Part shown: piece after piece, positions 5,320 to 43,017 of the stretch | Position numbering within the stretch: position 1 is the first letter of the stretch | Layout of the letters: every line of letters begins with the position of its first letter | From: a virus | Virus record (IMG/VR): IMGVR_UViG_3300022916_000005 | Length of the DNA stretch: 64,000 nucleotides | Reading direction: 5' to 3' (one strand) | Translations under genes and position numbers: made by a program | The notes under the pieces: generated by a model | Seen by the model: the letters and a program-made list of their open reading frames with translations, nothing else | Databases searched by the model: none | Told to the model about the DNA's origin: nothing

Positions 5320-5574
5320 ATGATTCAATTCCTTCTCGCTTGTTTGGGTCTTTTTCTGATCATATTCCTCATTTTGGTAAGTCGTTATTATGAGGAAAAA
5401 TTGGAGGAAGAAGTCCATAAAACAAGATGCCCAAAATGTGGTGGAATGTGGAAGATACACAACTGGTTTCGCGGTATGGTGGTTCTTTCTTGCCCCAAAT
5501 ATCACGAGTTAAACCATGTCAGCCTTTCCTCATTTGAACAATTTGAAAAATATTGCAACAACAAGGAAGGATAA
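5320..5574 (+). CDS. Membrane-anchored Zn-ribbon protein (paralog of 8379)
   Basis: N-terminal hydrophobic helix, CPKC...CPKYH. Confidence 0.65.
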   Translation: MIQFLLACLGLFLIIFLILVSRYYEEKLEEEVHKTRCPKCGGMWKIHNWFRGMVVLSCPKYHELNHVSLSSFEQFEKYCNNKEG

Positions 5575-6092
5575 TGATCAAGCCATATCAAATTTGGGCA
5601 GATGGCACCGTCATTTATAATCGCGATCACTATACTCCAAGACCTGATGGTTGTGCCATTAGTATCCCAGAGAAGATAATCATTTGGTATCAAAATAACA
5701 AGTATCACCGCACTGATGGTCCTGCCATTGAATATGCCAATGGTGGCAAAGAATGGTATCAAAATAACAAGCGTCACCGCTTTGACGGCCCTGCCATTGA
5801 ATTTGCCAATGGCGACAAATCTTGGTACATTGATGGCAAGTGTCACCGCATTGACGGCCCTGCCATTGAATATGCCAATGGTACCAAATTTTGGTTTCAA
5901 AATGGCAAATATCACCGCATTGACGGCCCTGCCATTGAATATGCCAATGGTGACAAATTTTGGTATCAAAATGGCAAACATCACCACATTGACGGCCCTG
6001 CCGTTGAATATGCCAATGGTACCAAATTTTGGTATATTGATGGTGTCGAATATTCCGAGCATGACTATAAAATTGAGATGAGCAACAAATGA
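5574..6092 (+). CDS. HRIDGPA 23-aa repeat protein, class A, 5 units
   Basis: [11 protein letters not shown] cap plus 69-nt repeats; start at MIKP after AAGGAAGG. Confidence 0.85.
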   Translation: MIKPYQIWADGTVIYNRDHYTPRPDGCAISIPEKIIIWYQNNKYHRTDGPAIEYANGGKEWYQNNKRHRFDGPAIEFANGDKSWYIDGKCHRIDGPAIEYANGTKFWFQNGKYHRIDGPAIEYANGDKFWYQNGKHHHIDGPAVEYANGTKFWYIDGVEYSEHDYKIEMSNK

Positions 6093-6712
6093 AAAATAAA
6101 AATAAAAATAACAGCAGCAGTAACAATCATTTAGATCGAATTAATGCACTTCTTATTGATAAGCTTGAATATCTTGATGACAAAACAAAAGAAGTATTGA
6201 CATCTTTTGAGAATCATGTTACAAATAGAGGGAGCTTAACGATGAATCAAGAAAAATGGTTCATCAAGATGGAAGAAGAATATAGTGATGAGAATATCGC
6301 TATTATGGATGAATGGGAATATGGAGACGAAGAAAAAGAAAACGCTACAATTGCTGCACATTACAATTCTGCGGGAAGATGGCACACAGATCTGTCAGCT
6401 AAGATTCTGATCGATTATGTTCCAACATACACGGAATATAGAAGCTTGACAGAGAATTCTTATGCCAAGAAAGTAATTGAAGAAACAAAGAAGACTCCTA
6501 GATTTGCAGTTGGTAATTTGGTTCAAGCAAGGGCAACAGCAAGCTTGGGATATAAAAATAAACCAGGGATGATTGTAAAGATAGTTAATGATCCTATTCT
6601 TGTTTCTGCTCGTGGAGCAAAAGAATATATGGTAAAGTTTTATCATGGCCCTCTTTTGACAGTTCAAGAGAGGTGGCTAAAATTTCAAAAGGGAGAAAAG
6701 AAGGGGAAATAA
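6089..6712 (+). CDS. Hypothetical protein with C-terminal SH3/KOW-like domain
   Basis: PRFAVGNLV...GMIVKI...YMVKF C-terminal pattern. Confidence 0.5.
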   Translation: MKNKNKNNSSSNNHLDRINALLIDKLEYLDDKTKEVLTSFENHVTNRGSLTMNQEKWFIKMEEEYSDENIAIMDEWEYGDEEKENATIAAHYNSAGRWHTDLSAKILIDYVPTYTEYRSLTENSYAKKVIEETKKTPRFAVGNLVQARATASLGYKNKPGMIVKIVNDPILVSARGAKEYMVKFYHGPLLTVQERWLKFQKGEKKGK

Positions 6713-6946
6713 ATGAATTTAATAACAATACAAGAAGAAGAAAATCCACCAGAAACAGTGTATCTGCCAGCGAACACATTGGTTCTAAATAAGGACAATA
6801 GCCTTGAATTTTATACAGAAGGGGAACCACAAACGGCAATTATGATCAATTGGATGGAAAATTATAGAAAGTGTTTGGTAATGATAAAACACAACAGATT
6901 AGTTTACGTAGACAAAAATAAAATATATAAATAAAAAGGAGATATA

Positions 6947-7213
6947 ATGGTCAATTTAACAAGAGTAGTAAAAATTACAACGTACGATTGTTCTGGAGAA
7001 AGTTGCTATAGATTAAGCTCGATTGATGTGAACCCGAAAAATGTAGAAACAATTGAAGAAGATGTGTCGATGACTAATCTTCATAGTAAAACTCCGATTA
7101 GTAAAGAGATTGATAAGTATGCAAGGTTTACCAAAATTGCATTAACAAGCGGAAAAGAAATCACAGTAATCGGGGAAAATGGCAAAATTTTAAGCAAAAT
7201 CAAACTAGGATAA
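6947..7213 (+). CDS. FlbD/SwrD-like small protein
   Basis: MVNLTR...VNPKNVETIEE...TKIALTSGKEITV resembles the FlbD family pattern; AAGGAG RBS. Confidence 0.45.
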   Translation: MVNLTRVVKITTYDCSGESCYRLSSIDVNPKNVETIEEDVSMTNLHSKTPISKEIDKYARFTKIALTSGKEITVIGENGKILSKIKLG

Positions 7214-7220
7214 TCAAAAG

Positions 7221-7631
7221 ATGAAATGGTATCAGATCTTCTCAGATGGAACCGTTATTTATGATGATGATTTAAAACAGGATACGATATACCCTGACGG
7301 TTGTTCCATTGAAATTCCAACAAAATCTTTGAGATGGTTTAAGAACAACAAGCTTCATCGAGATGGTGGTCCTGCCGCCGTTTATACCGATGGTACCAAA
7401 CATTGGTTTCAAAATGGCAAACATCACCGCATTGACGGCCCTGCCATTGAACGTGCCAATGGTGACAAATTTTGGTATCAAAATGGCAAACATCACCGCA
7501 TTGACGGCCCTGCCTGTGAATATGCCAATGGTGGCAAATATTGGTACATCGAAGGGATCAAATACACAAAGGAAGGACATCAAATTGTTGTCGATTCAAT
7601 GACAAAGGAGAATGAGAATGAAAACACCTGA
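7221..7631 (+). CDS. HRIDGPA repeat protein, divergent class A cap, 3 units
   Basis: YQIFSDGTVIY cap plus repeats. Confidence 0.85.
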   Translation: MKWYQIFSDGTVIYDDDLKQDTIYPDGCSIEIPTKSLRWFKNNKLHRDGGPAAVYTDGTKHWFQNGKHHRIDGPAIERANGDKFWYQNGKHHRIDGPACEYANGGKYWYIEGIKYTKEGHQIVVDSMTKENENENT

Positions 7632-7883
7632 TTACAGTACGTATATTGTTTTTGCAGATGGTGTAGTTGTTTTCCCTAGAAATTGTAGTTCACTTTCTAG
7701 GATCAATCCTTCTTCGTGGAATATTGTCAATTCAAAGTACGAAGTGTTTATTTATTGTGTAGATGGGAAGACAGTGACAAAAAAGGTGTGGATAAAGTCT
7801 AACCTTTCTTGTGATGAAGAAACGTAATTCAAAACTATTTATATCGTATGAATAAGCATTCAAAATAAGGATGAACATGCGAT

Positions 7884-8144
7884 ATGAACGAACATGACTT
7901 TGATGAAAAAGAATTATATGAATGGATTGGTTCTGTAAAAGAATCTTTGTCAACATTAAAAGAAAATTCATTAGATGTAAAAGATCAGATAACAAAGTTG
8001 GCAACCAGTGTCAGCGTATTGTGTACCAAACATGCTACTTTAGAAAATGACGTTAAGAACAAGGCAAGATTTTGGGGAGCGATTGCTTCGGGTGTTGTAA
8101 GTGTTGGAATGGGTCTCATTTTCGTCCTAATAAAAATCGTATAA
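7884..8144 (+). CDS. Coiled-coil plus C-terminal transmembrane protein (XhlA/holin-like architecture)
   Basis: Heptad-like N-part, hydrophobic C-terminus, late-type motif at 7834. Confidence 0.45.
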   Translation: MNEHDFDEKELYEWIGSVKESLSTLKENSLDVKDQITKLATSVSVLCTKHATLENDVKNKARFWGAIASGVVSVGMGLIFVLIKIV

Positions 8145-8378
8145 AAACAGCAGCATAAGGAGTATAACGATATGGATATATTATTCATTATTGTATTTAT
8201 TATTGCATTGACACATATAGAACAAGAACGAAATAACAACAAATATAAAGAAGAATGTAAAACATCAAGAGCGGCAAGATTACTTAACAGACACTACCCA
8301 GATCGTCAATAGAACTACCTTGACAACCCTTTCAGTTTGAGATATAATAAGACATAAATTGATACAGGTAGGTCTAAA

Positions 8379-8621
8379 ATGTTAGGTTATTTTCTTATTG
8401 GTTTGATTATCTTTTCGTTAATTTATGCAATTTGGGGAGAAATCGATCTAAATAAAAGAATTGAAGAATGCAAATGTCCAGAATGTAACGTAAACTTTAT
8501 GATCTTTGCAAAAATTCATAGTGTTGCGTTTGTGCAGTGTCCAAAGTGTGGATTGCATAATCAGTATGTTAGTAGGTATACCATCAAAGATTTTGAAAAG
8601 CGTTACAACAATGGCATTTAA
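8379..8621 (+). CDS. Membrane-anchored Zn-ribbon protein (paralog of 5320)
   Basis: TM helix, CPEC...CPKC; promoter at 8320 with the same leader as 5261. Confidence 0.65.
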   Translation: MLGYFLIGLIIFSLIYAIWGEIDLNKRIEECKCPECNVNFMIFAKIHSVAFVQCPKCGLHNQYVSRYTIKDFEKRYNNGI

Positions 8622-9018
8622 TTCTTACCAAATATGGGCAGATGGCACCGTCATTTATGATGGCGATTATGATACTCCAAAGCCTGACGGTTGTGCCATT
8701 GGTATCCCAGACAAGGCAATTGCTTGGTATCAAAATAACAAGTATCACCGCATTGACGGCCCTGCCGTTGAATGTGCCAGTGGTGACAAATTTTGGTATC
8801 AAAATGGCGAGTATCACCGCATTGACGGCCCTGCCATTGAATATATCAATGGTACCAAATATTGGTTTCAAAATGGCAAACATCACCGCATTGACGGCCC
8901 TGCCCGCGAATATGCCAATGGTGAAAAATATTGGTACATTGAAGGTGTCTGTTATTTCGAGCACAAATACAACATCAAGATGAAAACTTATCACAATGAA
9001 AAAGAAAAAGAAGCATAA
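8611..9018 (+). CDS. HRIDGPA repeat protein, class A, 3 units
   Basis: [12 protein letters not shown] cap plus repeats. Confidence 0.85.
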   Translation: MAFNSYQIWADGTVIYDGDYDTPKPDGCAIGIPDKAIAWYQNNKYHRIDGPAVECASGDKFWYQNGEYHRIDGPAIEYINGTKYWFQNGKHHRIDGPAREYANGEKYWYIEGVCYFEHKYNIKMKTYHNEKEKEA

Positions 9019-9141
9019 CCCATACAACGTCTTGAAAGGGAAGATTAGAGAGGATCACTTCAAAGATGGTGGAACTTTGGCAGAATGGCGAGGAAAAGCA
9101 GCAACATTCCCAGATAAAAAGAAAAAGGAGAGTAAAAACAA

Positions 9142-11451
9142 ATGCAGAGGAAAATTACGTATTCCTTCAAAATAGGTGACATCATCTTTGACCAACTTAG
9201 TGGATGTCATCTTGTCGTGGTCAAAAAAGATGAATATGGAAATTTTATCCTACAGTCATTAACGACAAAATATAGATTACCGATGCCTCCTACAGATTGG
9301 TTTGATGAATTCATTCTTATTTTTGAGACAAAAGATGAAGAATAAAAAAGTCAGTCACTACAATCTACATGACATCATTTGGGATGATTATCTTGGTGGA
9401 TATTACTTCGTTGTCAAAATGATTAATAAAAATGCTATACTTGGAGAAAGAATTTCAAACAGATTAGATGAGGGTGATAATCAAATATCTGTCCTTCTTA
9501 GCGAATGGCTTGAGGAATTTACATTAATATCGAGGATCCCAAAATGAAATTTCCAAGATTACAAAAAGATGATATTATTCTATGGTATAACGTTAATAAA
9601 AGCTTTCACAAAACGTATCTTGTCAATACTATATGTGTGGTTTCTTCCGTTTGTGGTGAGGAACAGTATGAGACAAACAGAGGAGGGACTCTTTATCGCA
9701 GAGATCTGATCGATTATGTAAACTTAACAAACCAAAAAACAAATTGGCGCATTTTGTTTATCTTTTCAAAAGAGAAGGGGATCGTTTGGCAAAGCGATTG
9801 GAGAGTAACATGAATACTGATGAAGTAGCGACCCTTTTTTGTGAAGAAGGAGACATCCTTAGATATTCGTATTTAAATGGCGAGACCTATTATTGCTATA
9901 TAACTTCTGTCAAAGATGGCTATGCAAGAGGAATTCGTTGTGGTGGTAGAGTTGGTGGACCTTACATGTTTTATGAGAATTGTATTTCGATTGGTAAATG
10001 GAAATTGGTGGCAAGATTGTCTGATGGAGAATAAGATGTATCATTCCGTTATTCTAAAAAAGTACAAACACTTGAGACAAAAAGTAAGACAGAATATTCA
10101 CAAATATGTTCCAAAGAAGTATCATAAACATATTCAGTATTTGATCAATAAGAAGATTCTATAACAACAAAAGGAGGTAACAAGCATGAAGCGATTTATG
10201 ATTCCAAGAATTGCAAACTGTTGCAACGGTTCTATAATTTGGGCTGGCATCCCATCAACTGCCAAATTCTTCCATTGACCATCCGTTCAGAATGGGTTAT
10301 AATCTACCTATGAAAGACAAAAAAGTACACATTTAAAGATGTTGCTTAGTAAAACTGATTGGAGAATCTTGGTCAAATATGAAAACTGATTACAAAATGA
10401 AGTTCAAAGATGTGGCAATTGGTGATATCTTTTATACCAAGTTTTTTGGACCTTTTTTTATTGTAGAAGTTATCAAACAAGAGAGAGGATATTATAAAAA
10501 TAAATATGTCATTCGCACTCCAAAAGGGATTGATTACGCATATGCCAATGATGACGAAAGGGTAAATTGGTTTAAGATTAAGACATCAGACTACTATGCA
10601 AAAGTGAAATCTGACAAAGAACAGGATACGAAATAAAATGTCATCATTTATTCCAAAAAAACATTCAATTCTTAAGATCCAAGATTCTCTTTTTCACAAC
10701 CCATCCACGCATAGTCTTATCTTTGTTCTTGAACGTTATGAGGATGGATTATGCAAAAGACAAAATTGTGAAACTCCATGTAATCGAAACGTGTCTCCTT
10801 TAGAAAGTGATGACCCTATTACTATTGTCTATATAATGTCTGGGAAGGATAAGGGTACTACAAAATGTTGGTCATCTTATGCCTTCAATCATGTAGAGAA
10901 AGTTACAACTATTTTTGAGATAGATCAAGATGAAGTATAAAGACATCAAGGTAGGAGATATATTTCGTGTCATTAATAATGATAAGACTTTTTCTACGAC
11001 TCCTTTTCTAATTAATTTTGTCATGGAGACTTCGGCACCTTATTTCGAAATTGGATACATATTGGTTGGTTCTCATCTTGGCAGATTAAGTCTTAATAAA
11101 GAAGATGGTGTACGGTGGCACAGAGTTGCAACATCATATGACAGAGAGAGGAATAGGATGAGTCGTAGTGTAAAAAAGAATGCCGTTCATTCTTTTACAA
11201 CTAGAGGTTCGAGAGCAGGAGCACAAAAAAAGTGGAAAAAGGGAAATAACAAGAAAAGTAGGCGTGATGTAAATGAAATCACCAAACTTGTTTCTTTGTT
11301 GACGGAAGAGGGAATCGACGAAGTTGAAGATAAACTTGATCTGCCATTGACAAGAAAGAAAAAGACTGGAGACATTTGGGATTCTCCTTGTGATGGAAAG
11401 ACACGAGTATATCAAGATGAAGATTATTACGAAGAGGCACTAAGAAAGTGA
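9142..11451 (+). other. Cluster of short hypothetical genes, mostly SH3-like paralogs (9142, ~9335, 9544, ~9810, 10379, 10638, 10930)
   Basis: Tightly packed 60-170 aa ORFs with KIGDII/QKDDII/EGDIL/IGDIF/VGDIF motifs; promoter at 10275. Confidence 0.55.
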
Positions 11452-12248
11452 TCAAGCTATATCAAATTTGGGCAGATGGCACCGTTATTTACGATGACGA
11501 TCATGATACTCCAAAGCCTGACGGTTGTGCCATTGGTATCCCAGACAAGACAATCACTTGGTATCAAAATGGCAAACTTCACCGCACTGACGGCCCTGCC
11601 ATTGAATATGCCAATGGTGACAAATCTTGGTATCAAAATAGCAAACTTTACCGCATTGACGGCCCTGCCATTGAATATGCCAATGGTGACAAACATTGGT
11701 ATCAAAATGGCAAGCGTCACCGCATTGACGGCCCTGCCGTTGAACATGCCAATGGTGACAAATCTTGGTGTCAAAATGACAAGTGTCACCGCATTGACGG
11801 CCCTGCCGTTGAATTTGCCAATGGCGACAAATCTTGGTACATTGATGGCAAGTGTCACCGCATTGACGGCCCTGCCATTGAACATGCCAATGGTGCCAAA
11901 TATTGGTATCAAAATGACACACTTCACCGCATTGACGGCCCTGCCGCCATTTATGTCAATGGTACCAAACATTGGTTTCAAAATGGCAAATATCACCGCA
12001 TTGACGGCCCTGCCCGCGAATATGCCAATGGTGGCAAAGAATGGTATCAAAATAACAAGCGTCACCGCATTGACGGCCCTGCCATTGAATCTGCCAATGG
12101 TGCCAAATTTTGGTATCAAAATAACAAGCGTCACCGCATTGACGGCCCTGCCATTGAACATGTCAATGGTGACAAATCTTGGTACATTGATGGGAAGCGC
12201 TATTCCGAGCATGACTACAACATCAAAATAAGGAAACTAAATGATTAA
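11448..12248 (+). CDS. HRIDGPA repeat protein, class A, 9 units
   Basis: Longest array of the 69-nt unit. Confidence 0.88.
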   Translation: MIKLYQIWADGTVIYDDDHDTPKPDGCAIGIPDKTITWYQNGKLHRTDGPAIEYANGDKSWYQNSKLYRIDGPAIEYANGDKHWYQNGKRHRIDGPAVEHANGDKSWCQNDKCHRIDGPAVEFANGDKSWYIDGKCHRIDGPAIEHANGAKYWYQNDTLHRIDGPAAIYVNGTKHWFQNGKYHRIDGPAREYANGGKEWYQNNKRHRIDGPAIESANGAKFWYQNNKRHRIDGPAIEHVNGDKSWYIDGKRYSEHDYNIKIRKLND

Positions 12249-12648
12249 TAATGAAGTAAAATGTTCTTTTAACCCAATTCCAAAGAGGAAGAGAGGGAAA
12301 GATCAAGAAACAAAAAAAGCAGGAAGGTACTTTCGTTCCATAATCCGTGTAAAAGGACTACAAGACAGCAAGTGGGCAATTCTTGCAAATCTTGATATTC
12401 CAGAGTTTAATAGCCTTCTTGAAGAAGGGCACACAAAGGAAGATATTGTCAAAGCAGGACTAAAATATCTTAACGAAGAGCAAATTCCAAAAACGAAGGA
12501 TGGAACTCCAAAAAAGGGTGGCAAACTTCCTTATGGAAAAATCCAATTTTACAAGATGGTTCCAAATGATCAGGACAAAATTCAGTGTCTATTGACGACA
12601 AATAACAGAAGCAGTTCTCACTTTTGGGGAGAAGGGGTCAAATTGTAA
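12241..12648 (+). CDS. Hypothetical basic protein
   Basis: 135-aa ORF translationally coupled to its neighbours. Confidence 0.6.
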   Translation: MINNEVKCSFNPIPKRKRGKDQETKKAGRYFRSIIRVKGLQDSKWAILANLDIPEFNSLLEEGHTKEDIVKAGLKYLNEEQIPKTKDGTPKKGGKLPYGKIQFYKMVPNDQDKIQCLLTTNNRSSSHFWGEGVKL

Positions 12649-13124
12649 TGATTGAGTCTTACCAAATATGGGCAGATGGCACCGTCATTTATGATGACAA
12701 TAATGACATTCCAAAGCCTGACGGTTGTGCCATTAGTATCCCAAGCAAGACAATCATTTGGTATCAAAATGGCAAACATCACCGCATTGACGGCCCTGCC
12801 ATTGAACATGCCAATGGTACCAAATATTGGTTTCAAAATGGCAAACTTCACCGCATTGACGGCCCTGCCCGCGAATATGCCAATGGTGACGAACTTTGGT
12901 ATCAAAATGGCAAGCGTCACCGCATTGACGGCCCTGCCGTTGAATATGTCAATGGTGACAAACATTGGTATCAAAATGGCAAGCGTCACCGCATTGACGG
13001 CCCTGCCGTTGAACGTGCCAATGGTGGCAAATATTGGTACATCGAAGGGATCAAATATTCCGAGCATGACTACAATATTAAAATCATTAATTTAAGCAAG
13101 GGCAAAAATAATGACTCACTATGA
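12648..13124 (+). CDS. HRIDGPA repeat protein, class A, 4 units
   Basis: [11 protein letters not shown] cap; TAATG coupling to the upstream gene. Confidence 0.85.
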
Positions 13125-13707
13125 CACTTTAGAGATTAATGAAAACTCTTCCAAAAAAGAGATCAAAAGTTCATACAAGAGACTTGCAAAGATCTATCAT
13201 CCCGACAAAGATACCGGAGATGAAGAGACATTCAAAGAGATCAATGTTGCCTACACTATCTTGTCTGATGAGGAAAAGAGAAAACAATATGACAACCAAC
13301 TGAATGTTGAGAAGTATCATGACTACCAAGAGCAAATGTTTCGAGAGAGAATTCAGAGAAACAATAAACCGAAAGAGTGGAAACCCTCAACAGAAAAAGA
13401 TGTCAAAATCAATTTAAGGACAGATGTTAAAGCTATTCAAGAAGGGTTTGAAGGAGAAGTTGAATACGTATTAAGAGTAATTTGTAAAGATTGTAATGGT
13501 GAAGGTGGAGAAGGAAAGAAAGACTGTGCTGATTGTAATGGAAGCGGAGTTGTCGTAAACTCTAATGGACCTTTCTTCCAAGCTTCAATGTGTCGCAAAT
13601 GTGATGGCAAAGGGAAAACGTTTGACAATCCGTGCGATACCTGTTATACTACAGGAGTAACAATGGAAAAACATACAATCAAATTTGATGTCAAAGAAAG
13701 GAAATAA
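13111..13707 (+). CDS. dnaJ: DnaJ-like co-chaperone (J domain plus Zn finger, truncated C-terminus)
   Basis: HYDTL...YHPDK J-domain; four CxxCxGxG-type repeats. Confidence 0.88.
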
Positions 13708-14157
13708 ATGATCAAGCCATATCAAATTTGGGTAGATGGCACCGTCATTTACGATGACAATAAAGACATTCCAAAGCCTGACGGATGTGCCATTAGTATC
13801 CCAGACAAGACAATTAAATGGTATCAAAATGACAAACTTCACCGCACTGACGGCCCTGCCATTGAATGTGCCAATGGTACCAAAATTTGGTATCAAAATG
13901 GCAAGTGTCACCGCATTGACGGCCCTGCCATTGAACATGCCAATGGTACCAAATATTGGTATCAAAATGGCAAGTGTCACCGCATTGACGGCCCTGCCAT
14001 TGAATATACCAATGGTGCCAAATTTTGGTATCAAAATAACAAGCGTCACCGCATTGACGGCCCTGCCATTGAATCTGCCAATGGTGACAAATCTTGGTAC
14101 ATTGATGGGAAGCGCTATTCCAAGCATGACTACAAAATTAAGATAAGTAACAAATGA
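13708..14157 (+). CDS. HRIDGPA repeat protein, class A, 4 units
   Basis: MIKPYQIWVDG cap plus repeats. Confidence 0.85.
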   Translation: MIKPYQIWVDGTVIYDDNKDIPKPDGCAISIPDKTIKWYQNDKLHRTDGPAIECANGTKIWYQNGKCHRIDGPAIEHANGTKYWYQNGKCHRIDGPAIEYTNGAKFWYQNNKRHRIDGPAIESANGDKSWYIDGKRYSKHDYKIKISNK

Positions 14158-27867: not shown

Positions 27868-28773
27868 ATGGGATACATGCATATTGACAATCTTGAGAAG
27901 CCGAGGGCACAAAGGATTTTAGACTTTAAAGAGGTTTACGTAGTTGAGAAAATTCACGGCACGAGTTCAAATTTATCCTTTAAAATCAATGAGTTAGGAG
28001 AAGAAGAATTGAGGTTCTTTTCTGGAGGGATGAGTCATCAACTCTTCATTAACATTTTTGATCAGGATGCTCTTCTTGCCAATTTCCGCAATCTTGGTGT
28101 GCAAGCGATTACCATCTATGGCGAAGCGTATGGCGGAAGTATGCAAAAGATGTCGCATTCATATGGCAAGGAGGCCAAGTTCATTGCATTTGATGTCAAA
28201 ATTGTTGATCATTGGCTCGATTTCGACAAGGCCCATAAACTAGTGACAGACGACATGAATCTTGAATTCGTATGGTTTACCAAGTCGAGTACAGACATTG
28301 AAGAGTTGATCAAGTGGCGTAATCAGGAATGTCAGCAGGCAATCCGTAATGGTATGGGTCACGGGCATAAGAGTGAAGGGATCGTAATTCGACCATTGTG
28401 GGAATGTGCTACCAACAATGGAAAGCGAATGCTTGTCAAGTTCAAGAATGCCGATTTCCAAGAAAGAAAGAACCCTCCATCGGTTGAGGATATGCTCAAG
28501 AAAGAAGAGAAGCTCAAAGTTCTTGCAGATGCGAGAAAGATTGCAGATGAGTGGGTAACAGAAATGAGGCTCACTCACGTACTTGACAAGATTGTGGGTG
28601 AAATTGATATGACTCGTACTGGCGAAATTATCAAGGCAATGCAAGAAGATGTTCTCCGAGAGGCAGAGGGAGAAATTATTGTATCAAAGAATACGTTAGG
28701 GCAGATTGCCGCAACAACGGCAAAGATGCTCAAGCGTCGATTGAATGACAATTTGATGAATAAAGAAAGATAA
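27868..28773 (+). CDS. Rnl2-like ATP-dependent RNA ligase
   Basis: Motif I EKIHGT, GEAYG, FDV, EGIV, KFK; promoter at 27811. Confidence 0.8.
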   Translation: MGYMHIDNLEKPRAQRILDFKEVYVVEKIHGTSSNLSFKINELGEEELRFFSGGMSHQLFINIFDQDALLANFRNLGVQAITIYGEAYGGSMQKMSHSYGKEAKFIAFDVKIVDHWLDFDKAHKLVTDDMNLEFVWFTKSSTDIEELIKWRNQECQQAIRNGMGHGHKSEGIVIRPLWECATNNGKRMLVKFKNADFQERKNPPSVEDMLKKEEKLKVLADARKIADEWVTEMRLTHVLDKIVGEIDMTRTGEIIKAMQEDVLREAEGEIIVSKNTLGQIAATTAKMLKRRLNDNLMNKER

Positions 28774-29159
28774 TGATCAAGCCATATCAAATTTGGGTAG
28801 ATGGCACCGTTATTTACGATGACGATTATGATACTCCAAAGCCTGACGGATGTGCCATTAGTATCCCAGACAAGACAATTAAATGGTATCAAAATGGCAA
28901 ACTTCACCGCATTGACGGCCCTGCCATCGAATATGCCGATGGTGGCAAATCTTGGTATCAAAATGGCAAACATCACCGCATTGACGGCCCTGCCATTGAA
29001 TATGTCAATGGTGACAAATGTTGGTATCAAAATGGCAAGTGTCACCGCATTGGCGGCCCTGCTCTTGAATATATTGATAGTTACAAATTTTGGTATATTG
29101 ATGGTATCAAATATTCCGAGCAAGACTATAGTATTGAAATTGCTAGGAGAAGTAAATGA
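28773..29159 (+). CDS. HRIDGPA repeat protein, class A, 3 units
   Basis: MIKPYQIWVDG cap plus repeats. Confidence 0.85.
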   Translation: MIKPYQIWVDGTVIYDDDYDTPKPDGCAISIPDKTIKWYQNGKLHRIDGPAIEYADGGKSWYQNGKHHRIDGPAIEYVNGDKCWYQNGKCHRIGGPALEYIDSYKFWYIDGIKYSEQDYSIEIARRSK

Positions 29160-29523: not shown

Positions 29524-31428
29524 CCTTTCCACCTTGACAACTCGTTTCCCTCGTGATATCATGTACTTGTGAATGGGAACCTCCATCATCGAGAACGATA
29601 TGTACAATGAACTAGAAAAAATAAAAAGTTACAAAAGAATGTTGTTCTTTGATACCCACTCAGAACAGTACTTTGTTGTAAAAGATGTTGTTTTGTTCCC
29701 TAAATTGTATTGTCGAAATGTGTCATGCAGAGACAACAAGAACGAGAATTGTCATTCTTGGAATTCAAGTGGAATCAGGATGTTCTGCTTTTACAAAAAT
29801 AACTCAGCTAGTACAACTTGCATTTCGTCAACAAGTTTCTTAAACAAAGTTGAAATTGGAGAATACGATGTCATCTCAAGAAATGAATAATCATGTCAAA
29901 AAGCTGTATCTAGAGATTCAACAGGCAGAGGAAATGAAGAAACTTCTTAACGTTATTTCTGGAGGGATTTCTTATCAAAATGGATATCACCAAGACCAAT
30001 CGGAAGAGACAACTCGTGCCTTCTCTGTTTTGAGCGCAGAACTTAACAAAAAGCAGAATCGTTTATGGGCGTATCTTGCTCAAGTTTCCTTTGTTAGTGG
30101 AGAACTCGAAAAAGAAACAAGAGATAAGGTGACAGAGAAGTTTGTCAAAATTGCTTTAAAGACAGGGACAGACATCCCAGGTTATCTCGGATATGACAGA
30201 TATAACAAAGATGGCAAATTGTTTCGTAAAGAAGTAAACGACAAGTTTGAAGAATTTGTTGAAGAAAACGATATTCAAGAAGAGGAAGAGGATTCTAATT
30301 CCTATAGAGTTTGGCAAGATTTGGATGATGAAGAGAAAAAAGAATGAAATATCCAATAGGAACAATCTTTTACTACAACAATAATGGAGTTTCTGACTAT
30401 TGCTATGCGGTGAGTTATAACTCCTTTACACTTTCATATAAAATAAAGTGGAATAAGATACTTTGTGGGGCATATTTTGATTATAGTGAGACATCTATCA
30501 CTGGAGGAATTAAGAGGAAATGTTGGGAGATAATCATATGAAAGTAAATATTATCGGAATGATCTTGTATGATCCTAACTTTAAGGGTGGGGAGTTTGGA
30601 GTAGTTATAGAAGGAAGTCGCGATATGGAAGGAGAGGTTTCGATTCTTTGGCAAAAATATGGCAATCAATCTGGAGTTTCAAGATCGGGCATTATTGACT
30701 CTATTGCTGATAAAGGTTTTATTATTATTTCTCCGTTAAGTGAAAAGGAAAAAGAAAGTATCCATCTAGAGATTTATGAAACAACAGACCTTTCGGAGCA
30801 CCTTTAGCCAATCTTTTTCCTTGACTGCCACGTCATCCTGTGGTATCATGTATCTAGAAACGGTCGAAAGAGTGGAGAGAAAATGAAGCGTCAATACAAA
30901 AGATTAAGCCTTAAAGAACATTTTTGTCTTGGACACTTTTATTATGTTGAGGAACTTCTTGATGAAGGAAGCATCAAACCTTGTACTCCTATCTTTAATA
31001 AAAATGGATGGTTTTACGATAGGTTTGAAGATGTTTCTTGGATTGAATTTGATGGGAAAGCCTATGTTGACGAAAATTCTGATCGTTTTAAAAGGAAGGT
31101 CTACTCTTTTAAACTTCTTCGCAAGTGCGAACTAGATTCGATTAAGGTCTTGGTTGATAATAAGATTCTCAAGAATGAGAATCCTTTATGGAAGTGTTAT
31201 TGCGATAACCATGAGTACCTTTACCACAGAAGTCTAATGGTAGAGACGAGGATTTCTGTCAATAGGATGAGAAAGTAAATGAAAAGGTTATGAGATGAAG
31301 CGCCAAAAGAACGACAAGAGAAAGAGTAAGCGTAAAAAGAAAAAGATAGACAAAGCCTTTGAAGATTGTAGGAAAAGAGAAGAAGGGCAAGACGCTCAGT
31401 GGAGAGAATTGAGGAAGTGGGGAGAAAA

Positions 31429-32580
31429 ATGATTCCAACATATAATGAATGTCTCGAAATCGTGAAAGCCAACGATTCCTTCTTTATGTCGATTGTAGAA
31501 GTGCAAGGATATAAGGTTGTGATGTTCAATTATCGTATTGCATCGTACGGAGATTTCAATTGTCCGATCAAGGACAAACCAGAGATCAAGGCTTACGAGT
31601 TGAGAGGTCTTACATTCGTCCAACAGAATGATGGTAGCATGAAACGATTTATCATGCTTCACAAGTTTTTCAATATGGGCGAGACAGAAGGATATCTTCT
31701 TAAAGATGTGAAGGACAAGAAGATTGTCTCTGTTCAAAATAAGTTTGATGGCAGTCTTATTCGATTCATTCGACTTCCTAATGGAAATGTCGTTGCCAAG
31801 ACAAAGATGAGTTTTGACAACGATCAGAGTCGTATGGCACAAGAGATTTACGACAATGATGAGAAACTACAGGAATTCATTAACACATCCTTGAAACTTA
31901 ATCGTTCTGCCTTGTTCGAGTTTGTTGGACCTTCTAACAGGATTGTGTTGAGATACAAAGAGCACAAACTTGTACTACTCCAAGAAAGGAGTGAGAACGG
32001 AAAGTATAGAAACATTGAATTGGTGAACAAGATTTATGGTATCAACATTGCCGAGGCAGAAGAATATCCTGATTATACTGTAGAGGATCTGAAGGAGAGG
32101 GCAAAGACAGAAGAAAATATTGAAGGATGGGTTGTTACTCTTGATGATGGACAGATCCTAAAGATCAAGACAGCGCAGTATTTTCAACTACACCATCTTC
32201 GTACCAATTGTATGGACAAAGAGAACTACATCATTCAGGCCATTATTGACGAGAATGTAGACGACATCTTTGCCCAGCTTGATGAAAATGATGATGATGT
32301 TCGTGATAATATCCGAGACATCGAAAAGAAAATCAGTCAGTATTACAACACTACTGCATCTAAAATATACGATACGGTATTCTACGAGTTCGATCCAAAC
32401 AAGCGAAAGAAGTTTGCATTGAAATACAAGGACACTCCAGAATTCCCTATGATGATGGCCCTTGTTGCCAAAGGAGAGGTTACTGTTCAGAATGCAACAG
32501 ATGTTGTAAAGGAGCACATCTTGAAAAGGACAAAGAAGCTCATTGGTGCAGTCAAGTTCCTTAATGACCTTGACAAGTAA
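31429..32580 (+). CDS. T4 Rnl1 (RnlA)-like RNA ligase
   Basis: ELRGLTF, HKFFN, motif I KFDGSLI, FEFVGPSNRIVLRY, EGWVV, KIKT. Confidence 0.88.
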   Translation: MIPTYNECLEIVKANDSFFMSIVEVQGYKVVMFNYRIASYGDFNCPIKDKPEIKAYELRGLTFVQQNDGSMKRFIMLHKFFNMGETEGYLLKDVKDKKIVSVQNKFDGSLIRFIRLPNGNVVAKTKMSFDNDQSRMAQEIYDNDEKLQEFINTSLKLNRSALFEFVGPSNRIVLRYKEHKLVLLQERSENGKYRNIELVNKIYGINIAEAEEYPDYTVEDLKERAKTEENIEGWVVTLDDGQILKIKTAQYFQLHHLRTNCMDKENYIIQAIIDENVDDIFAQLDENDDDVRDNIRDIEKKISQYYNTTASKIYDTVFYEFDPNKRKKFALKYKDTPEFPMMMALVAKGEVTVQNATDVVKEHILKRTKKLIGAVKFLNDLDK

Positions 32581-35034: not shown

Positions 35035-35310
35035 AAACTTTTTCGTTGACAGGGCCTTCGGGCTGTGGTACGATGTGCTTGTCCTGGTGAGGGAAGGCCG
35101 TTGAAACGACGAAAACTTTTTCGTTGACAGGGCCTTCGGGCTGTGGTACGATGTACTTGTCCTGGTGAGGGAAGGTCGTTGAAACGATGAAAACTTTCTC
35201 CTTGACAGGGCGGTAGGTTCGTGGTACTATGTTCTTGGAAGTTAGGGGCCGTCAAAGAGGCGGTTGATTTTTCCCCTTGACAAGCGGCCCTGTTTGATGT
35301 AGAATGGGTC
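35035..35310 (+). promoter_or_regulatory. Four tandem sigma70 promoters (78/78/75-bp period) with no intervening genes
   Basis: TTGACA at 35046, 35124, 35202, 35277 with -10 TACGAT, TACGAT, TACTAT, TAGAAT; the first two units are near-identical 78-mers. Confidence 0.85.
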
Positions 35311-35377: not shown

Positions 35378-35863
35378 ATGACGTTTACTGGTTTTGATTC
35401 GGTCAAGGCGTTTCGTGAGGCTCACACCACTGCCGAGGGTACTTTCTTCAATAAGGAGGATTTCGCCGCTCGCAAGGTTGCGCTCGGTCGCAAGGTTTTT
35501 GCGGATCGGTTCTTCATGTCGAGCGTTCCTGTTGATGTGTCGCGAGAAGAGGCGGGTGGGAATCGTCTGTTTACCCTGCTTTTCATCGAGGATGACCTTT
35601 CGGTGACTGTCCTCGGTACGCCCGATGGCCTGGAGAGTCGCTATAAGGCGAACAAGGGCAAGGATCTGGCGATTAAGGCGTTCTCGAAGGATGGCACGCT
35701 GGATCGCTTCGTCGAGACGGATGCGGATTCCGACCTTGACGTGGAGGTCGAGCTTGAGGCGGATTCCACCGATGGCGAGCCTGTCGAGATTCTCGACGCT
35801 GACGATGCTATCTCGGAGTTCTCGGATGAGGTCGCGGAGCAGATCACCAATCTGAACGGTTAG
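35378..35863 (+). CDS. Probably highly expressed early protein with acidic C-terminal tail
   Basis: GGAGG RBS, GC-rich codons, D/E-rich last ~50 aa, stacked promoters upstream. Confidence 0.75.
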   Translation: MTFTGFDSVKAFREAHTTAEGTFFNKEDFAARKVALGRKVFADRFFMSSVPVDVSREEAGGNRLFTLLFIEDDLSVTVLGTPDGLESRYKANKGKDLAIKAFSKDGTLDRFVETDADSDLDVEVELEADSTDGEPVEILDADDAISEFSDEVAEQITNLNG

Positions 35864-37835: not shown

Positions 37836-37842
37836 TTTTTGT

Positions 37843-37915: not shown

Positions 37916-37924
37916 CTATTTTTA

Positions 37925-38000: not shown

Positions 38001-38010
38001 TTTAATTTAT

Positions 38011-38082: not shown

Positions 38083-38198
38083 CTTGGAAGGTAGTTCAAA
38101 ACTTGTTTGTCTCGCCAATTCTTTTCCCTTGACTTGTGGACTGCCTTGTGATACTATAGGGCATGAGGTTGAGGGATTGAACGAGTTTGGAGAATAAG

Positions 38199-38534: not shown

Positions 38535-38558
38535 TAACAGATAGAAGAGCAAGAGGCA

Positions 38559-38954
38559 ATGATGGCGAATTTCGAGACATATGAAGTGAGAGTGTATGCC
38601 AATGGTACCAAATGTTGGTATCAAAATGGCAATTGTCACCGCATTGACGGCCCTGCCGTTGAATGTGCCAGTGGTGACAAATTTTGGTATCAAAATGGCG
38701 AGTATCACCGCATTGACGGCCCTGCCATTGAATATATCAATGGTACCAAAGTTTGGTATCAAAATGGCAAGTTTCACCGCATTGACGGCCCTGCCATTGA
38801 ATATGTCAATGGTGACAAATATTGGTATCTTGATGGAGAATGCTATACCGAGCATGACTATAACACCGAGATTGCCAAGCGAAATGCCAATACTTGCGAA
38901 GATCGCCTTGTCGAGATTGACGGTATCAAGTACAAGCTGATCAAGGCTTGCTAA
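38559..38954 (+). CDS. HRIDGPA repeat protein, class B, 3 units
   Basis: MANFETYEVRVY cap; EIAKRNANTCEDRLVEIDGIKYKL tail. Confidence 0.85.
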   Translation: MMANFETYEVRVYANGTKCWYQNGNCHRIDGPAVECASGDKFWYQNGEYHRIDGPAIEYINGTKVWYQNGKFHRIDGPAIEYVNGDKYWYLDGECYTEHDYNTEIAKRNANTCEDRLVEIDGIKYKLIKAC

Positions 38955-39393
38955 TCCTGCCAAAACTTTCTCCTTGACTTGACGGTCATCCTGTGGTATC
39001 ATGTATTATCTAGAAACGGTCGAGAAGAGAGGAAAAAGAAATGGATAAAATCAAAGCTATCTTGTGGGATAAGTTTGTAGAGGATAAATTCCTTGAAGAT
39101 GCTACTTTAGGACAGATTCAGGCAGAACTACGAACTATAGAGAAAGAACTTGTAATTGCAAACTGTGAACAAGCATCAGAAGAAAACGATTATCGACCTG
39201 GAGTGGAAACTTATGGTTACTTCGATTTAGAGCAAATCAAGCTCACTCTTGAGTATATCTCTGATCGTTGGAATTGTCAGTTTAGGGTCAGATGGCTACT
39301 AGACCTCATTAACATTTAAACTTTCCCCTTGACTTGACGGTCATCCCGTAGTATCATGTATCTAGAAACGGTCAAGAAATAACAAACGAGGCA

Positions 39394-39924
39394 ATGATGG
39401 CGAATTTCGAGACATATGAAGTGAGAGTGTATGCCAATGGTGACAAATTTTGGTGTCAAAATGACAAGTTTCACCGCATTGACGGCCCTGCCGTTGAATA
39501 TGTCAATGGTGACAAACATTGGTATCAAAATGGCAAGCGTCACCGCATTGACGGCCCTGCCGTTGAATATGTCAATGGTGACAAACATTGGTATCAAAAT
39601 GGCAAGCGTCACCGCATTGACGGCCCTGCCGTTGAACATGCCAATGGTGACAAATCTTGGTATCAAAATGGCAAGTGTCACCGCATTGACGGCCCTGCCG
39701 TTGAATCTGCCAATGGTGACAAATTTTGGTATCAAAATGACAAGTGTCACCGCATTGACGGCCCTGCCTGTGAATATGCCAATGGTGACAAAGATTGGTA
39801 TCTTGATGGAGAATGTTATACCGAGCATGACTATAACACCGAGATTGCCAAGCGAAATGCCAATACTTGCGAAGATCGCCTTGTCGAGATTGACGGTATC
39901 AAGTACAAGTTGCTCAAGGTCTGA
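39394..39924 (+). CDS. HRIDGPA repeat protein, class B, 5 units
   Basis: Same caps; own promoter at 39329. Confidence 0.85.
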   Translation: MMANFETYEVRVYANGDKFWCQNDKFHRIDGPAVEYVNGDKHWYQNGKRHRIDGPAVEYVNGDKHWYQNGKRHRIDGPAVEHANGDKSWYQNGKCHRIDGPAVESANGDKFWYQNDKCHRIDGPACEYANGDKDWYLDGECYTEHDYNTEIAKRNANTCEDRLVEIDGIKYKLLKV

Positions 39925-40011
39925 CAATCCTGCCAAAACTTTCCCCTTGACTTGACGGTCATCCTGTGGTATCATGTATCTAGAAACGGTCAAGAAATAA
40001 CAAACGAGGCA

Positions 40012-40404
40012 ATGATGGCGAATTTCGAGACATATGAAGTGAGAGTGTATGCCAATGGTACCAAATGTTGGTGTCAAAATGACAAGTTTCACCGCATTGA
40101 CGGCCCTGCTGTTGAACATGCCAGTGGTTTCAAAGTTTGGTATCAAAATGGCAAGTTTCACCGCATTGACGGCCCTGCCGTTGAACGTGCCAATGGTGAC
40201 AAATTTTGGTTTCAAAATGGCAAATATCACCGCATTGACGGCCCTGCCGTTGAATCTGCCAATGGTGACAAATATTGGTATCTTGATGGTGTCGAATATT
40301 TCGAGCATGACTATAACACCGAGATTGCCAAGCGAAATGCCAATACTTGCGAAGATCGCCTTGTCGAGATTGACGGTATCAAGTACAAGTTGCTCAAGGT
40401 CTGA
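40012..40404 (+). CDS. HRIDGPA repeat protein, class B, 3 units
   Basis: Tandem duplicate of the promoter-plus-gene unit starting at 39318. Confidence 0.85.
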   Translation: MMANFETYEVRVYANGTKCWCQNDKFHRIDGPAVEHASGFKVWYQNGKFHRIDGPAVERANGDKFWFQNGKYHRIDGPAVESANGDKYWYLDGVEYFEHDYNTEIAKRNANTCEDRLVEIDGIKYKLLKV

Positions 40405-40492
40405 CAATCCTGCCAAAACTTCCCCTTGACTTGACGGTCATCCTGTGGTATCATGTATCTAGAAACGGTCGAGAAGAAGGAAGGAAATATAA

Positions 40493-41620
40493 ATGGGTAT
40501 GTTAGACGATAAGCGACTAAAGTTGATGATTGATCTGAAGGATATTGAATCCAAGGCAATCGATCAGATCGAAAACATCTTGAAGATGGACTTTATCGTC
40601 AAGCTCGCCATTATGCCCGACGTTCACATGGGTTACACCTTACCAATTGGAGGTGTGGCTTTGACGAAAGATGTTATCTCTCCTGTTTTCGTAGGATATG
40701 ACATTGGGTGCGGAATGTGCCTTGTCGAGACCAACATTAAGGCATCAAAGTGGAATCAGGGAAAGAAAGAGAGAATCTACAAGGCAATCTGTGAGGCAAT
40801 TCCTGTCGGAAAAACGTCTCACGAGGATTCCCAGGATTATGTAGATTTTGTCTCGGAATCCAAGAACAAAAACCTTGACAAGAAGGTCAATAGTCGTCTT
40901 AAGATTCAGCTAGGAACGTTAGGATCGGGAAACCACTTCATCGAGTTAGGCGAGAACAAAGAAGGAAAGATTTGTATCACCATTCATTCAGGTTCTAGGA
41001 ACATCGGACATTCTATTGCAACCTACTACATGAACATCAAACAGGACGGGCTAGACAAGGGATTCTTGCATCTTGATTCTGTAGAAGGTCGTCAGTATGC
41101 CGCAGACCTTCTATTCGCTCAGAACTACGCATTAGACAATCGTAAGCACATGATGAAGGCTGTCCTTGAGATCCTTAATGTTAAAGATGTTGATGGTGCG
41201 ATAAAGGGGATGATCAATGAAAACCACAACCATGCCATTGTTCTTGATGGTGGACTTGTTTTGCATAGGAAGGGAGCGACTCCGGCAGACAAAGGTCAGT
41301 TAGGTGTAATTCCTGCCAACATGCGAGATGGCGTGTATGTGACGAAAGGTCTTGGCAACGATGAGTATCTTAACTCTGCCTCTCACGGATGCGGGCGAAC
41401 GATGGGGAGAAATGATGCAAAGAGAAACCTTGATGTAGATGTCTTTAAGAAGGGCATGAAGGGAATTGTTGCAAGCGTTGATAAGTCGTCTTTGGATGAA
41501 GCCCCGATGGCATACAAGGATGCAAATTTTGTCATTGATGCTCAGAAGGGTATTGCGGTAGATGTCATCGATCATATCAAGACCCTTATCGTTGTGAAAG
41601 GTACGTCAAGACCTTTATAA
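40493..41620 (+). CDS. rtcB: RtcB 3'-phosphate/5'-OH RNA ligase
   Basis: MPDVHMG, VGYDIGCG, LGTLGSGNHFIE, HSGSR, HNH, HRKGAT, SASHGCGR, DEAPMAYK. Confidence 0.95.
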   Translation: MGMLDDKRLKLMIDLKDIESKAIDQIENILKMDFIVKLAIMPDVHMGYTLPIGGVALTKDVISPVFVGYDIGCGMCLVETNIKASKWNQGKKERIYKAICEAIPVGKTSHEDSQDYVDFVSESKNKNLDKKVNSRLKIQLGTLGSGNHFIELGENKEGKICITIHSGSRNIGHSIATYYMNIKQDGLDKGFLHLDSVEGRQYAADLLFAQNYALDNRKHMMKAVLEILNVKDVDGAIKGMINENHNHAIVLDGGLVLHRKGATPADKGQLGVIPANMRDGVYVTKGLGNDEYLNSASHGCGRTMGRNDAKRNLDVDVFKKGMKGIVASVDKSSLDEAPMAYKDANFVIDAQKGIAVDVIDHIKTLIVVKGTSRPL

Positions 41621-41655
41621 AACAAAATAGAGAAGAACAACATAACGAGGCAATT

Positions 41656-42048
41656 ATGGCGAATTTCGAGACATATGAAGTGAAAGTGTATGACAATGGT
41701 GACAAATCTTGGTATCAAAATGGCAAGTGTCACCGCATTGACGGCCCTGCCATTGAATATGCCGATGGTGACAAATCTTGGTATCAAAATGGCAAGTGTC
41801 ACCGCATTGACGGCCCTGCTGCCGAATATGCCGATGGTGACAAATTTTGGTATCAAAATGGCAAGCGTCACCGCATTGACGGCCCTGCCATTGAACGTGC
41901 CAATGGTGACAAATGTTGGTACATTGATGATAAGTACTATTCCGAGCATGACTACAATGCCGAGATTACCAAGCGCAATGCCAATACCTGCGAAGATCGC
42001 CTTGTCGAGATTGACGGCATCAAGTACAAGCTGATCAAGGCTTGCTAA
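41656..42048 (+). CDS. HRIDGPA repeat protein, class B, 3 units
   Basis: MANFETYEVKVY cap and class B tail. Confidence 0.85.
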   Translation: MANFETYEVKVYDNGDKSWYQNGKCHRIDGPAIEYADGDKSWYQNGKCHRIDGPAAEYADGDKFWYQNGKRHRIDGPAIERANGDKCWYIDDKYYSEHDYNAEITKRNANTCEDRLVEIDGIKYKLIKAC

Positions 42049-42150
42049 TCCTGCCAAAACTTTCCCCTTGACTGCCACGTCATCCTGTGGTACTATAGGG
42101 CATGAGGTTGAGGGATTGAGTCAAAACGAACGAACTGAGAGGGATATATC

Positions 42151-42453
42151 ATGACGACGATTGGACGTGGAATGTTTGCGAAAGGGATCAAGTCGAGCAC
42201 AGCGAACAGCAAGGTGACGGTCAAGACACCGGACGGAAAGGTGCGAACGATGCACAAGAACGGCAAGATGGCGAAGGAAGGCGGAATCGTCGGCCCGAAG
42301 GCCCACGCGCGCAATTTGCGAACGTCCGTCAAGTCCGAGAAGGTCGTCAACCGTGTCAATACGGTTAGCGGTAGCAAGGCCGCGAAGGTCGTCATTCGCA
42401 AGCGCAACGAGGAAGCCGTCACCTTCATCACGGGTCGCATTGCCGATAACTAA
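42151..42453 (+). CDS. Small basic (K/R-rich) protein, possible nucleic-acid binder
   Basis: Own promoter at 42068, GAGGG RBS, GC-rich codons, strongly basic. Confidence 0.6.
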   Translation: MTTIGRGMFAKGIKSSTANSKVTVKTPDGKVRTMHKNGKMAKEGGIVGPKAHARNLRTSVKSEKVVNRVNTVSGSKAAKVVIRKRNEEAVTFITGRIADN

Positions 42454-42624
42454 GAAATAAACATCATGAAGAAGATAAACCCATATAAGCTCAACGATCA
42501 AGAGGCCATTAGATTTCTTATCTTTTTGGGAATTACAGGAATGTTTGACCCATTCATGGTATGTATCTTTCTTTCAGTTATGTGGAAGCACCTGGATTAG
42601 TAGTAGAAGCAACATAACGAGGCA

Positions 42625-43017
42625 ATGATGGCAAATTTCGAGACATATGAAGTGAGAGTGTATGCCAATGGTGACAAACATTGGTATCAAAATGGCAAAC
42701 ATCACCGCATTGACGGCCCTGCCATTGAATATGTCAATGGTGACAAATATTGGTATCAAAATGGCAAACATTACCGCATTGACGGTCCTGCTGTTGAATA
42801 TGCCAATGGTGAGAAACATTGGTATCAAAATGGCAAACATCACCGCATTGACGGCCCTGCCGTTGAATATGCCAATGGTGACAAATCTTGGTATCTTGAT
42901 GGTGTCGAATATTTCGAGCATGACCACAACAACGAGATTGCCAAGCGAAATGGCAATTCCTGCGAAAATCGCCTTGTCGAGATTGAAGGCGTCAAGTACA
43001 AGTTGCTCAAGGTCTGA
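42625..43017 (+). CDS. HRIDGPA repeat protein, class B, 3 units
   Basis: Class B caps (slightly diverged tail). Confidence 0.85.
   Translation: MMANFETYEVRVYANGDKHWYQNGKHHRIDGPAIEYVNGDKYWYQNGKHYRIDGPAVEYANGEKHWYQNGKHHRIDGPAVEYANGDKSWYLDGVEYFEHDHNNEIAKRNGNSCENRLVEIEGVKYKLLKV

Follow-up and report, generated by a model that had tools for sequence, protein, structure and literature searches.

The stretch of viral DNA analysed here (IMG/VR record IMGVR_UViG_3300022916_000005; 64,000 nucleotides (nt), referred to as the window) carries twelve genes built from 48 copies of one 69-nt unit. We consider it probable that these genes (g1-g12) form a germline multigene family of MORN-like repeat proteins, which is diversified by ordinary homologous recombination together with diversifying selection and whose products probably act as intracellular binders. 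The evolutionary part of this reading, i.e. homologous recombination through a shared scaffold combined with diversifying selection, is well supported both within the genome and between strains. Judged from sequence features and predicted structures, the most likely function is that of a panel of binders acting inside the cell on variable host proteins.

All 48 units are in frame in + strand genes spanning positions 5574-43017, and Tandem Repeats Finder detected a period of 69 in every array. Each unit encodes 23 residues with the consensus WYQNGKxHRIDGPAxExANGxKx, in which the positions marked x (x1-x5) are codons 7, 15, 17, 21 and 23. A 21-nt core, CACCGCATTGACGGCCCTGCC, gave 47 matches at three or fewer mismatches, 33 of them exact, compared with none in shuffled sequence; the only unit without a match is the 48th, the degenerate first unit of g2. 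Distinct sequences were found for 46/48 units. The arrays are flanked by two types of cap: the seven class A genes (g1-g7) have a YQIWADG-type N-cap, and the five class B genes (g8-g12) have a MANFETYEV cap and a C-terminal extension of ∼45 residues. The units have a guanine-cytosine (GC) content of 46%, compared with 38% in background genes, and the scaffold uses GC-rich codons far more than the genome otherwise does (CGC 77% versus 5%, GGC 64% versus 10%, GCC 96% versus 19% and GAC 89% versus 29%). The ancestral unit may have been of foreign origin, or conversion may have been GC-biased.

Variation within the units is concentrated in a small number of codons. Six amino acids occur at each of codons 7, 15 and 17, seven at codon 21 and ten at codon 23; codons 5 (G/N/D/S) and 18 (A/V/T/I) have four each and codon 2 has three (Y/F/C), whereas W1, P13 and most scaffold codons show little or no variation. 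Codons 7 and 17 end in T in 48/48 units, codon 23 ends in T in 46/48 and codon 21 ends in C in 46/48. For x1-x5, non-synonymous diversity (piN, 0.422) exceeded synonymous diversity (piS, 0.099), giving a piN/piS ratio of 4.24, which rose to 5.5 for the seven variable codons. In contrast, the ratio was 0.33 for the scaffold, i.e. the other 16 codons (piN 0.047, piS 0.141). In agreement, non-consensus codons were non-synonymous or synonymous in a proportion of 166:1 at the variable positions and 41:32 in the scaffold (Fisher test; p = 2e-18). These results show that diversifying selection retains amino-acid diversity at ∼5-7 positions per unit, and that the scaffold is under purifying selection. 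C-ending codons account for 28-56% of Tyr, Phe, Cys and His codons in background genes and for none at positions 7 and 17; therefore, the alleles at these positions derive from one NNT ancestor and were changed at codon positions 1-2 only. The sole common silent polymorphism, AAG/AAA at Lys6, shows tight linkage to the x1 allele beside it (AAG occurs with CGT, TGT and TTT, AAA with CAT and CTT, and TAT with either). Among the 48 units, where power is low, linkage reached p < 0.01 only for Lys6 with x1, codon 5 with codon 7 and codon 6 with codon 18.

The caps have a different history. Between paralogues, the proportion of differing silent sites (pS) in the caps is 0.22-0.56, with a ratio of non-synonymous to silent differences (pN/pS) of ∼0.4, which is ordinary, older evolution under purifying constraint. 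Since the caps diverge more at silent sites than the unit scaffold does (piS 0.14), the units have been homogenised and exchanged. Indeed, class A and class B genes have exact tracts in common (119 nt in g5/g9, 115 nt in g3/g8 and 89 nt in g4/g9). Together, these comparisons show that the units come recently from one 69-nt ancestor and have been kept alike by recombination between copies. A preliminary description of this DNA, made without database searches, had reported the twelve genes, their 48 units and span, the near-invariant core, the codons used at x1, x3, x4 and x5 with their fixed third base, and the two cap classes, all of which we recovered. It had also proposed positive selection at x1-x5 and a single unit pool serving both cap classes, in line with the selection ratios and the shared tracts above.

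In an exact-sequence look-up, several of the repeat proteins were found, unchanged or slightly altered, in JGI and ENA assemblies, on up to 18 contigs; ten contigs were compared with the window (listed as L001, L004-L006 and L008-L014; the ENA contigs are k=141 assemblies). Outside the repeat genes, no difference from the window was found in L001 (16 kb), L008 (12.6 kb), L009 (10.1 kb and 2.8 kb), L010 (12.6 kb), L011 (3.8 kb), L012 (2.1 kb) or L014 (∼4.4 kb), and L005 had three differences in 9.1 kb. Besides a few point differences, the main variable site outside the repeat genes is a perfect 16-nt tandem repeat (3.3 copies, 45132-45184) inside the open reading frame (ORF) at 45126-45788, which has extra copies in L004 and is 16 nt shorter in L013. 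When JGI metagenome contigs were searched with the core pattern, three loci were found, of which only L004 is related to the window; L002 was rejected because its match is a chance one in another frame, inside a leucine-rich-repeat-like gene, and L003 gave no blastn match to the window.

Against this nearly clonal background, the strains differ in how many units the arrays have, in what those units are and in the number of genes. The only change over 19 kb of L001 is 8734 A>G in a g3 unit (N to D), and L010 has one substitution, at 11946, in codon 15 of a g4 unit; both are non-synonymous and both lie inside units. Shortened arrays were found for g1 (three units instead of five in L010, one in L012), g3 (two units in P0126), g11 (two units instead of three in L006) and g12 (one unit in L004). 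In L014, three bases of g2 change GKH to DTL, a string identical to one in a g4 unit, with no other difference in 5.3 kb; this is a conversion patch of at most ∼42 nt. Alleles have also moved between genes: 36/39 differences between L005 and the window lie inside g10, whose place is taken by a g8-like allele, and the g8 slot of L013 holds a variant allele with nine nucleotide changes, all at variable codons. These two g8-like alleles differ by 3 nt. The gene g9 is absent from L013 and L006. In L006, a single g8::g10 chimera replaces g8, a 92-amino-acid ORF, g9 and g10, with the crossover inside the ∼20-nt invariant core. A g4::g9 chimera in L009 (ENA k141_658446, 12228-12812) is joined via the 89-nt tract of the two genes and runs straight into RtcB, so that ∼28 kb (11.7-40.4 kb of the window) is missing. 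The lost block contains DnaJ, the tRNAs, both RNA ligases and g5-g8, and is dispensable as a whole if this deletion is real. A g9::g10 fusion was also among the strain events. Because the background is near-clonal and almost every strain difference lies in the repeat genes, the targets of selection can be identified directly.

The mechanism behind these events is recombination between copies. Unequal crossover within arrays changes the number of units, short-tract gene conversion between arrays moves patches of units, and crossover between dispersed paralogues fuses genes. General homologous recombination of the phage, acting on the invariant core, suffices for all three with no special enzyme. 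Recombination through the core and strain variation in unit number and order had both been anticipated in the preliminary description; the first is borne out by the L006 crossover and the second by the assembled contigs.

A different explanation is neutral repeat instability, in which the arrays are dispensable, the variable positions are unconstrained and no adaptive repertoire exists. It would account for the freely changing unit number, for the loss of genes in some strains (g9 in L013) and for the contig in which 28 kb, with five of the genes, is missing. However, relaxed constraint predicts piN similar to piS, and we observed piN at 4-5 times piS, together with the purifying selection on the scaffold. 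Furthermore, the reading frame and both caps are kept in the twelve genes and in every strain variant, and the changes at 8734 and 11946 are non-synonymous and within units, with none in those flanks. We therefore regard neutral instability as unlikely.

Alternatively, the structural variation between strains could be an assembly artefact, with only the within-genome pattern being real. Several variants are indeed close to, or at, the end of a contig (L004, L005 and L012), and collapsed repeats and joined paralogues are typical products of short-read assembly. Nevertheless, the L006 and L013 variants are well inside k=141 contigs, the crossover tracts are far below k (∼20 nt in L006, 89 nt in L009) and the g2 patch would need two switches within ∼42 nt. 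The g8 variant allele also recurred across JGI and ENA assemblies that are independent of each other, and it combines sequences in ways not seen in the window. Since k=141 contigs exceed the 20-89 nt junction tracts and the g8 variant recurs independently, we take most of the strain variation as real, and a wholesale artefact seems improbable.

To relate the variable codons to protein structure, g6 and g9 were modelled with AlphaFold2 (predicted local distance difference test scores (pLDDT) of 91.7 and 92.8, respectively). Both models are single-layer sheets of regular hairpins with the same DSSP pattern in every unit. In the first pairing, [x2, E16] pairs with [K22, x5] around the 5-residue turn x3-A-N-G-x4, and in the second, [Y2, Q3] pairs with [K6, x1] around a 2-residue N-G turn. 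The models are all-beta except for a C-cap helix, and class B adds a C-terminal hairpin. Variable and conserved residues alternate strictly along the strands, in x4-K-x5-W-Y-Q (positions 21-22-23-1-2-3), K-x1-H (6-7-8) and x2-E-x3 (15-16-17), and cross-strand partners are either both variable (Y2:x1, x2:x5) or both conserved (Q3:K6, E16:K22). Therefore, one variable and one conserved face are predicted. This period-2 alternation is as expected from the earlier proposal that the variable residues lie on one face of the solenoid, and the variable residues should thus form a binding surface on one side of the sheet.

Comparison with known structures pointed to MORN proteins. Foldseek ranked junctophilin-2, MORN1 and MORN4 at the top (probability 0.95-1.0, with 1.0 for MORN1 and MORN4; E-values 3e-4 to 2e-3), and VIA-align gave g6 Z-scores of 6.5-6.7 to MORN proteins, with the CPAP G-box and OspA sheets close behind and a phage baseplate chain at a similar Z. 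As the CPAP G-box and OspA score near MORN, the fold class is clear and the similarity is middling. A MORN repeat has been defined as two strands with a 5-residue hairpin loop and a 6-residue linker, 23 residues in all (PMC7725318), and the modelled architecture fits this definition: the period of 69 nt and the models give 23-residue beta-hairpin units in an elongated single-layer sheet. MORN arrays serve in protein-protein interaction, and the partner of MORN4 is bound in a central groove (PMC7725318). MORN repeat proteins include MORN1 (6T4D, 6T68 and 6T69), MORN4 with Myo3a (6JLE), the junctophilins and the radial-spoke proteins RSP1/RSP10. Neither MORN (PF02493) nor MORN_2 (PF07661) was listed in an hmmscan of g4, g6, g9 and g12 at E up to 0.1, and PF07661 is carried by only some remote homologues or clusters; the MORN signature motifs GxG and YEGEW (PMC7725318) do not occur in the unit consensus. 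A sequence profile search of the PDB gave no match, and NCBIfam at E up to 1 gave spurious matches only, with no indication of membership in the YwqK-type MORN_2 immunity/antitoxin family. DUF6745 (PF20530) was matched by g4 (31.1 bits, cut-off 27) and more weakly by g6, g9 and g12 (19.6-20.4 bits), over ∼20/206 profile positions, corresponding to one repeat.

On the reading we favour, small cytoplasmic proteins would be made inside the cell from host-type promoters, and each would have its own fast-evolving binding partner, of which a host defence protein, a toxin or another host protein is the most plausible. Several observations weigh against this account. Binder function, partners and expression are all inferred. 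The likeness to MORN is middling (Z < 8), with no MORN or MORN_2 Pfam match, and the assignment of variable residues to one face comes from the DSSP register and the sequence alternation rather than from measured exposure. Linkage was undetectable between most variable codons, even those a few bases apart (48 units, low power), which is not easily explained by recombination alone, so recurrent mutation may also contribute. Finally, the strain evidence consists of assemblies, in which unit collapses and fusions at contig ends resemble short-read assembler errors.

Megablast of two window stretches against GenBank phages gave no match, the 21-nt core pattern had no match in IMG/VR, and a search of bacterial genomes for related loci gave no relatives. 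The GroEL encoded in the window has at most ∼40% identity to any phage GroEL, and its nearest IMG/VR relative is L015, at 47% identity, which has no member of the repeat family within 10 kb. The lack of nucleotide matches and the low GroEL identity therefore indicate a large, uncultured and novel phage. All genes in the window are on the + strand, at ∼37% GC, and the DNA is densely filled with small ORFs. Coordinates of the repeat genes and of other features are given in the following table.

Table. Repeat genes, promoter-like sites and selected neighbouring genes in the window.
Feature	Position	Strand	Class	Units	Length (amino acids)	Remarks
g1	5574..6092	+	A	5	172	class A cap
g2	7221..7631	+	A	3	136	divergent class A cap; first unit degenerate
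g3	8611..9018	+	A	3	135	
g4	11448..12248	+	A	9	266	GTG start
g5	12648..13124	+	A	4	158	
g6	13708..14157	+	A	4	149	structure modelled
g7	28773..29159	+	A	3	128	isolated copy adjoining RNA ligase gene
g8	38559..38954	+	B	3	131	class B cap
g9	39394..39924	+	B	5	176	structure modelled
g10	40012..40404	+	B	3	130	
g11	41656..42048	+	B	3	130	
g12	42625..43017	+	B	3	130	
Perfect 12/12 sigma-70 site	5261-5289	+				upstream of operon with g1
Perfect 12/12 sigma-70 site	8320-8348	+				upstream of g3
11/12 sigma-70 site	13622-13650	+				before g6
TTGACT-17-TATCAT site	39329..39357	+				before g9
TTGACT-17-TATCAT site	38974	+				before 92-amino-acid ORF
TTGACT-17-TATCAT site	39947	+				before g10
TTGACT-17-TATCAT site	40426	+				before RtcB
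GroEL	2469-4028	+				protein family scan
RtcB	40493-41620	+				protein family scan
Nine tRNA genes	17201-38083	+				part of RNA-repair set

The promoter sites are matches to the sigma-70 consensus only. Between 28000 and 43600 there are 60 such promoter-like sites, compared with 38 +/- 5.8 expected, which would fit transcription by the host polymerase. A 78-nt tandem repeat (35035-35211; 2.3 copies, 94% matches) lies just upstream of the ORF at 35378-35863, and as each copy contains a TTGACA-17-TACGAT promoter-like site, the promoters are stacked.

The class A genes are interleaved with chaperone and protease genes of the phage itself, namely ClpP and GroEL (1861-4028) and a DnaJ with a zinc-finger domain (13111-13707). 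The class B genes are interleaved with an RNA-repair set comprising an RNA ligase (27868-28773), a T4 Rnl1-like ligase (31399-32580), RtcB and the nine tRNA genes. RNA ligases, RtcB and tRNAs together are the kit that would be expected of a phage countering host tRNA nucleases. HNH endonucleases are also encoded, and a second, unrelated repeat protein of 692 amino acids, of the leucine-rich repeat variant (LRV) type, is found at 50682-52760.

This neighbourhood bears on a third alternative, that the repeat proteins are extracellular or virion-associated adhesins that decorate the particle or bind the host surface. Hypervariable phage proteins are often receptor-binding, and the phage baseplate chain and the single-layer sheets of OspA were matched at similar Z. 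However, the repeat genes follow sigma-70-like promoters and have chaperone, RNA-repair, tRNA and small accessory genes as neighbours, with no identified structural module. None of the twelve protein sequences has an N-terminal hydrophobic or signal segment, and no tail-fibre-like attachment domains were seen. We give an adhesin role about as little weight as a wholesale assembly artefact.

Mutagenesis like that of diversity-generating retroelements, in which a template repeat is reverse-transcribed with its adenines randomised, so that AAY codons become NNY, would explain the fixed third base at variable codons (NNT at 7, 17 and 23; NNC at 5 and 21) and the excess of CGC, GGC and GCC among scaffold Arg, Gly and Ala codons, which is unusual for the genome, but it is scarcely credible here: 13/21 consensus-A columns are essentially invariant (CAA, AAT, AAG, GAA and AAA), the consensus base of variable columns is about evenly A (8), C (5), G (6) or T (5), the 27 larger ORFs of the window had no reverse transcriptase match in Pfam or PHROGs, the changes between strains are recombinational (unit insertions and deletions, copied patches and fusions), and the target is 48 units in twelve genes rather than a single C-terminal variable region. 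The dedicated diversification system suggested in the preliminary description thus found no support, as neither a reverse transcriptase in those 27 ORFs, an adenine-specific pattern nor a silent template was found. Its wider interpretation holds in part, namely for selection, recombination and the shared unit pool, and not for dedicated machinery. Three observations had been named beforehand as telling against it; instead, piN/piS was above 1 at x1-x5, the variable residues were predicted on one face rather than buried or scattered, and variation was present at strain level.

A bolder version of the binder reading is also conceivable, although we hold it only tentatively. The family might serve as a heritable, recombination-shuffled 'immune repertoire' on the virus side, with about a dozen MORN-like binders per genome in which exchange through the core keeps generating new specificities for host defence or toxin proteins that are polymorphic, while the same repeats drive kilobase-scale rearrangements. 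In a sharper form, the binders would be adaptors that hand host proteins to the phage ClpP, GroEL and DnaJ, or would shield tRNA from host nucleases beside RtcB and the RNA ligases. If the proteins are binders, they represent a natural, compact beta-hairpin scaffold of 23 residues per unit, with 5-7 randomised positions that are actively re-sorted by evolution. They would also mean that phages can diversify ligand-binding proteins by recombination as well as by the known retroelement route, and would point to host targets whose rapid variation calls for a repertoire.

The unit belongs to a wider family with the motif HRxDGPA, partly caught by DUF6745 (PF20530). The HRxDGPA repeat is present in more than 7,600 proteins of comparable length and in 630 that are longer, and its ESM Atlas clusters are 100% viral. 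Most of the longer proteins consist of repeats alone, and fused enzyme domains such as Fic occur occasionally, as might be expected of a targeting module. Multiple copies are present in Agrobacterium phage Atu_ph07 (12 places) and Celeribacter phage P12053L. The Atu_ph07 repeats are degenerate and have no tandem periodicity at the DNA level; therefore, near-identical units are a trait of the window lineage and not of the whole family. Thus, the window proteins share the repeat motif with their relatives, but differ in the near-identity of their units at the DNA level and in the population evidence of ongoing shuffling. A literature search found no paper on HRxDGPA repeat proteins in phages, and this family, very abundant in viral metagenomes, is unstudied.

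Among characterised systems, MORN proteins are the best structural matches, with the same 23-residue beta-hairpin repeat in an elongated, single-layer twisted sheet. The phage proteins differ in their signature (WYQNGK-HRIDGPA-E-ANG-K, not GxG...YEGEW), and the set is viral, ∼130-270 amino acids in length and made up of many paralogues with near-identical DNA units. Giant viruses have expanded families of ankyrin, MORN, BTB and FNIP repeat proteins (PMC5753266). They likewise carry many paralogous repeat-domain genes in large DNA genomes, thought to act at the host interface; however, these are amoebal viruses and their copies are divergent.

Transcription activator-like (TAL) effectors resemble the phage genes in having near-identical DNA repeats with a few hypervariable residues each, whose number and order change by recombination. 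In contrast, their units are helical, of 33-35 residues, read one DNA base per repeat and usually make up one protein, whereas the phage repeats are beta-hairpins and the repertoire is spread over twelve genes. No two-helix repeat of 33-35 residues was seen in the models, which are all-beta apart from the C-cap helix. The likeness to TAL effectors and variable lymphocyte receptors drawn in the preliminary description therefore stands as logic only: this is a germline family of 23-residue beta-hairpins, with neither a one-residue-per-base code nor somatic assembly. To our knowledge, concerted evolution at the level of units, combined with codon-specific diversifying selection and shuffling between strains, has not been described for any phage. 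Diversity-generating retroelements likewise limit hypervariability to positions 1-2 of chosen codons in a ligand-binding scaffold, but here, where no adenine specificity, reverse transcriptase or template was found, the same outcome is attributed to recombination and selection.

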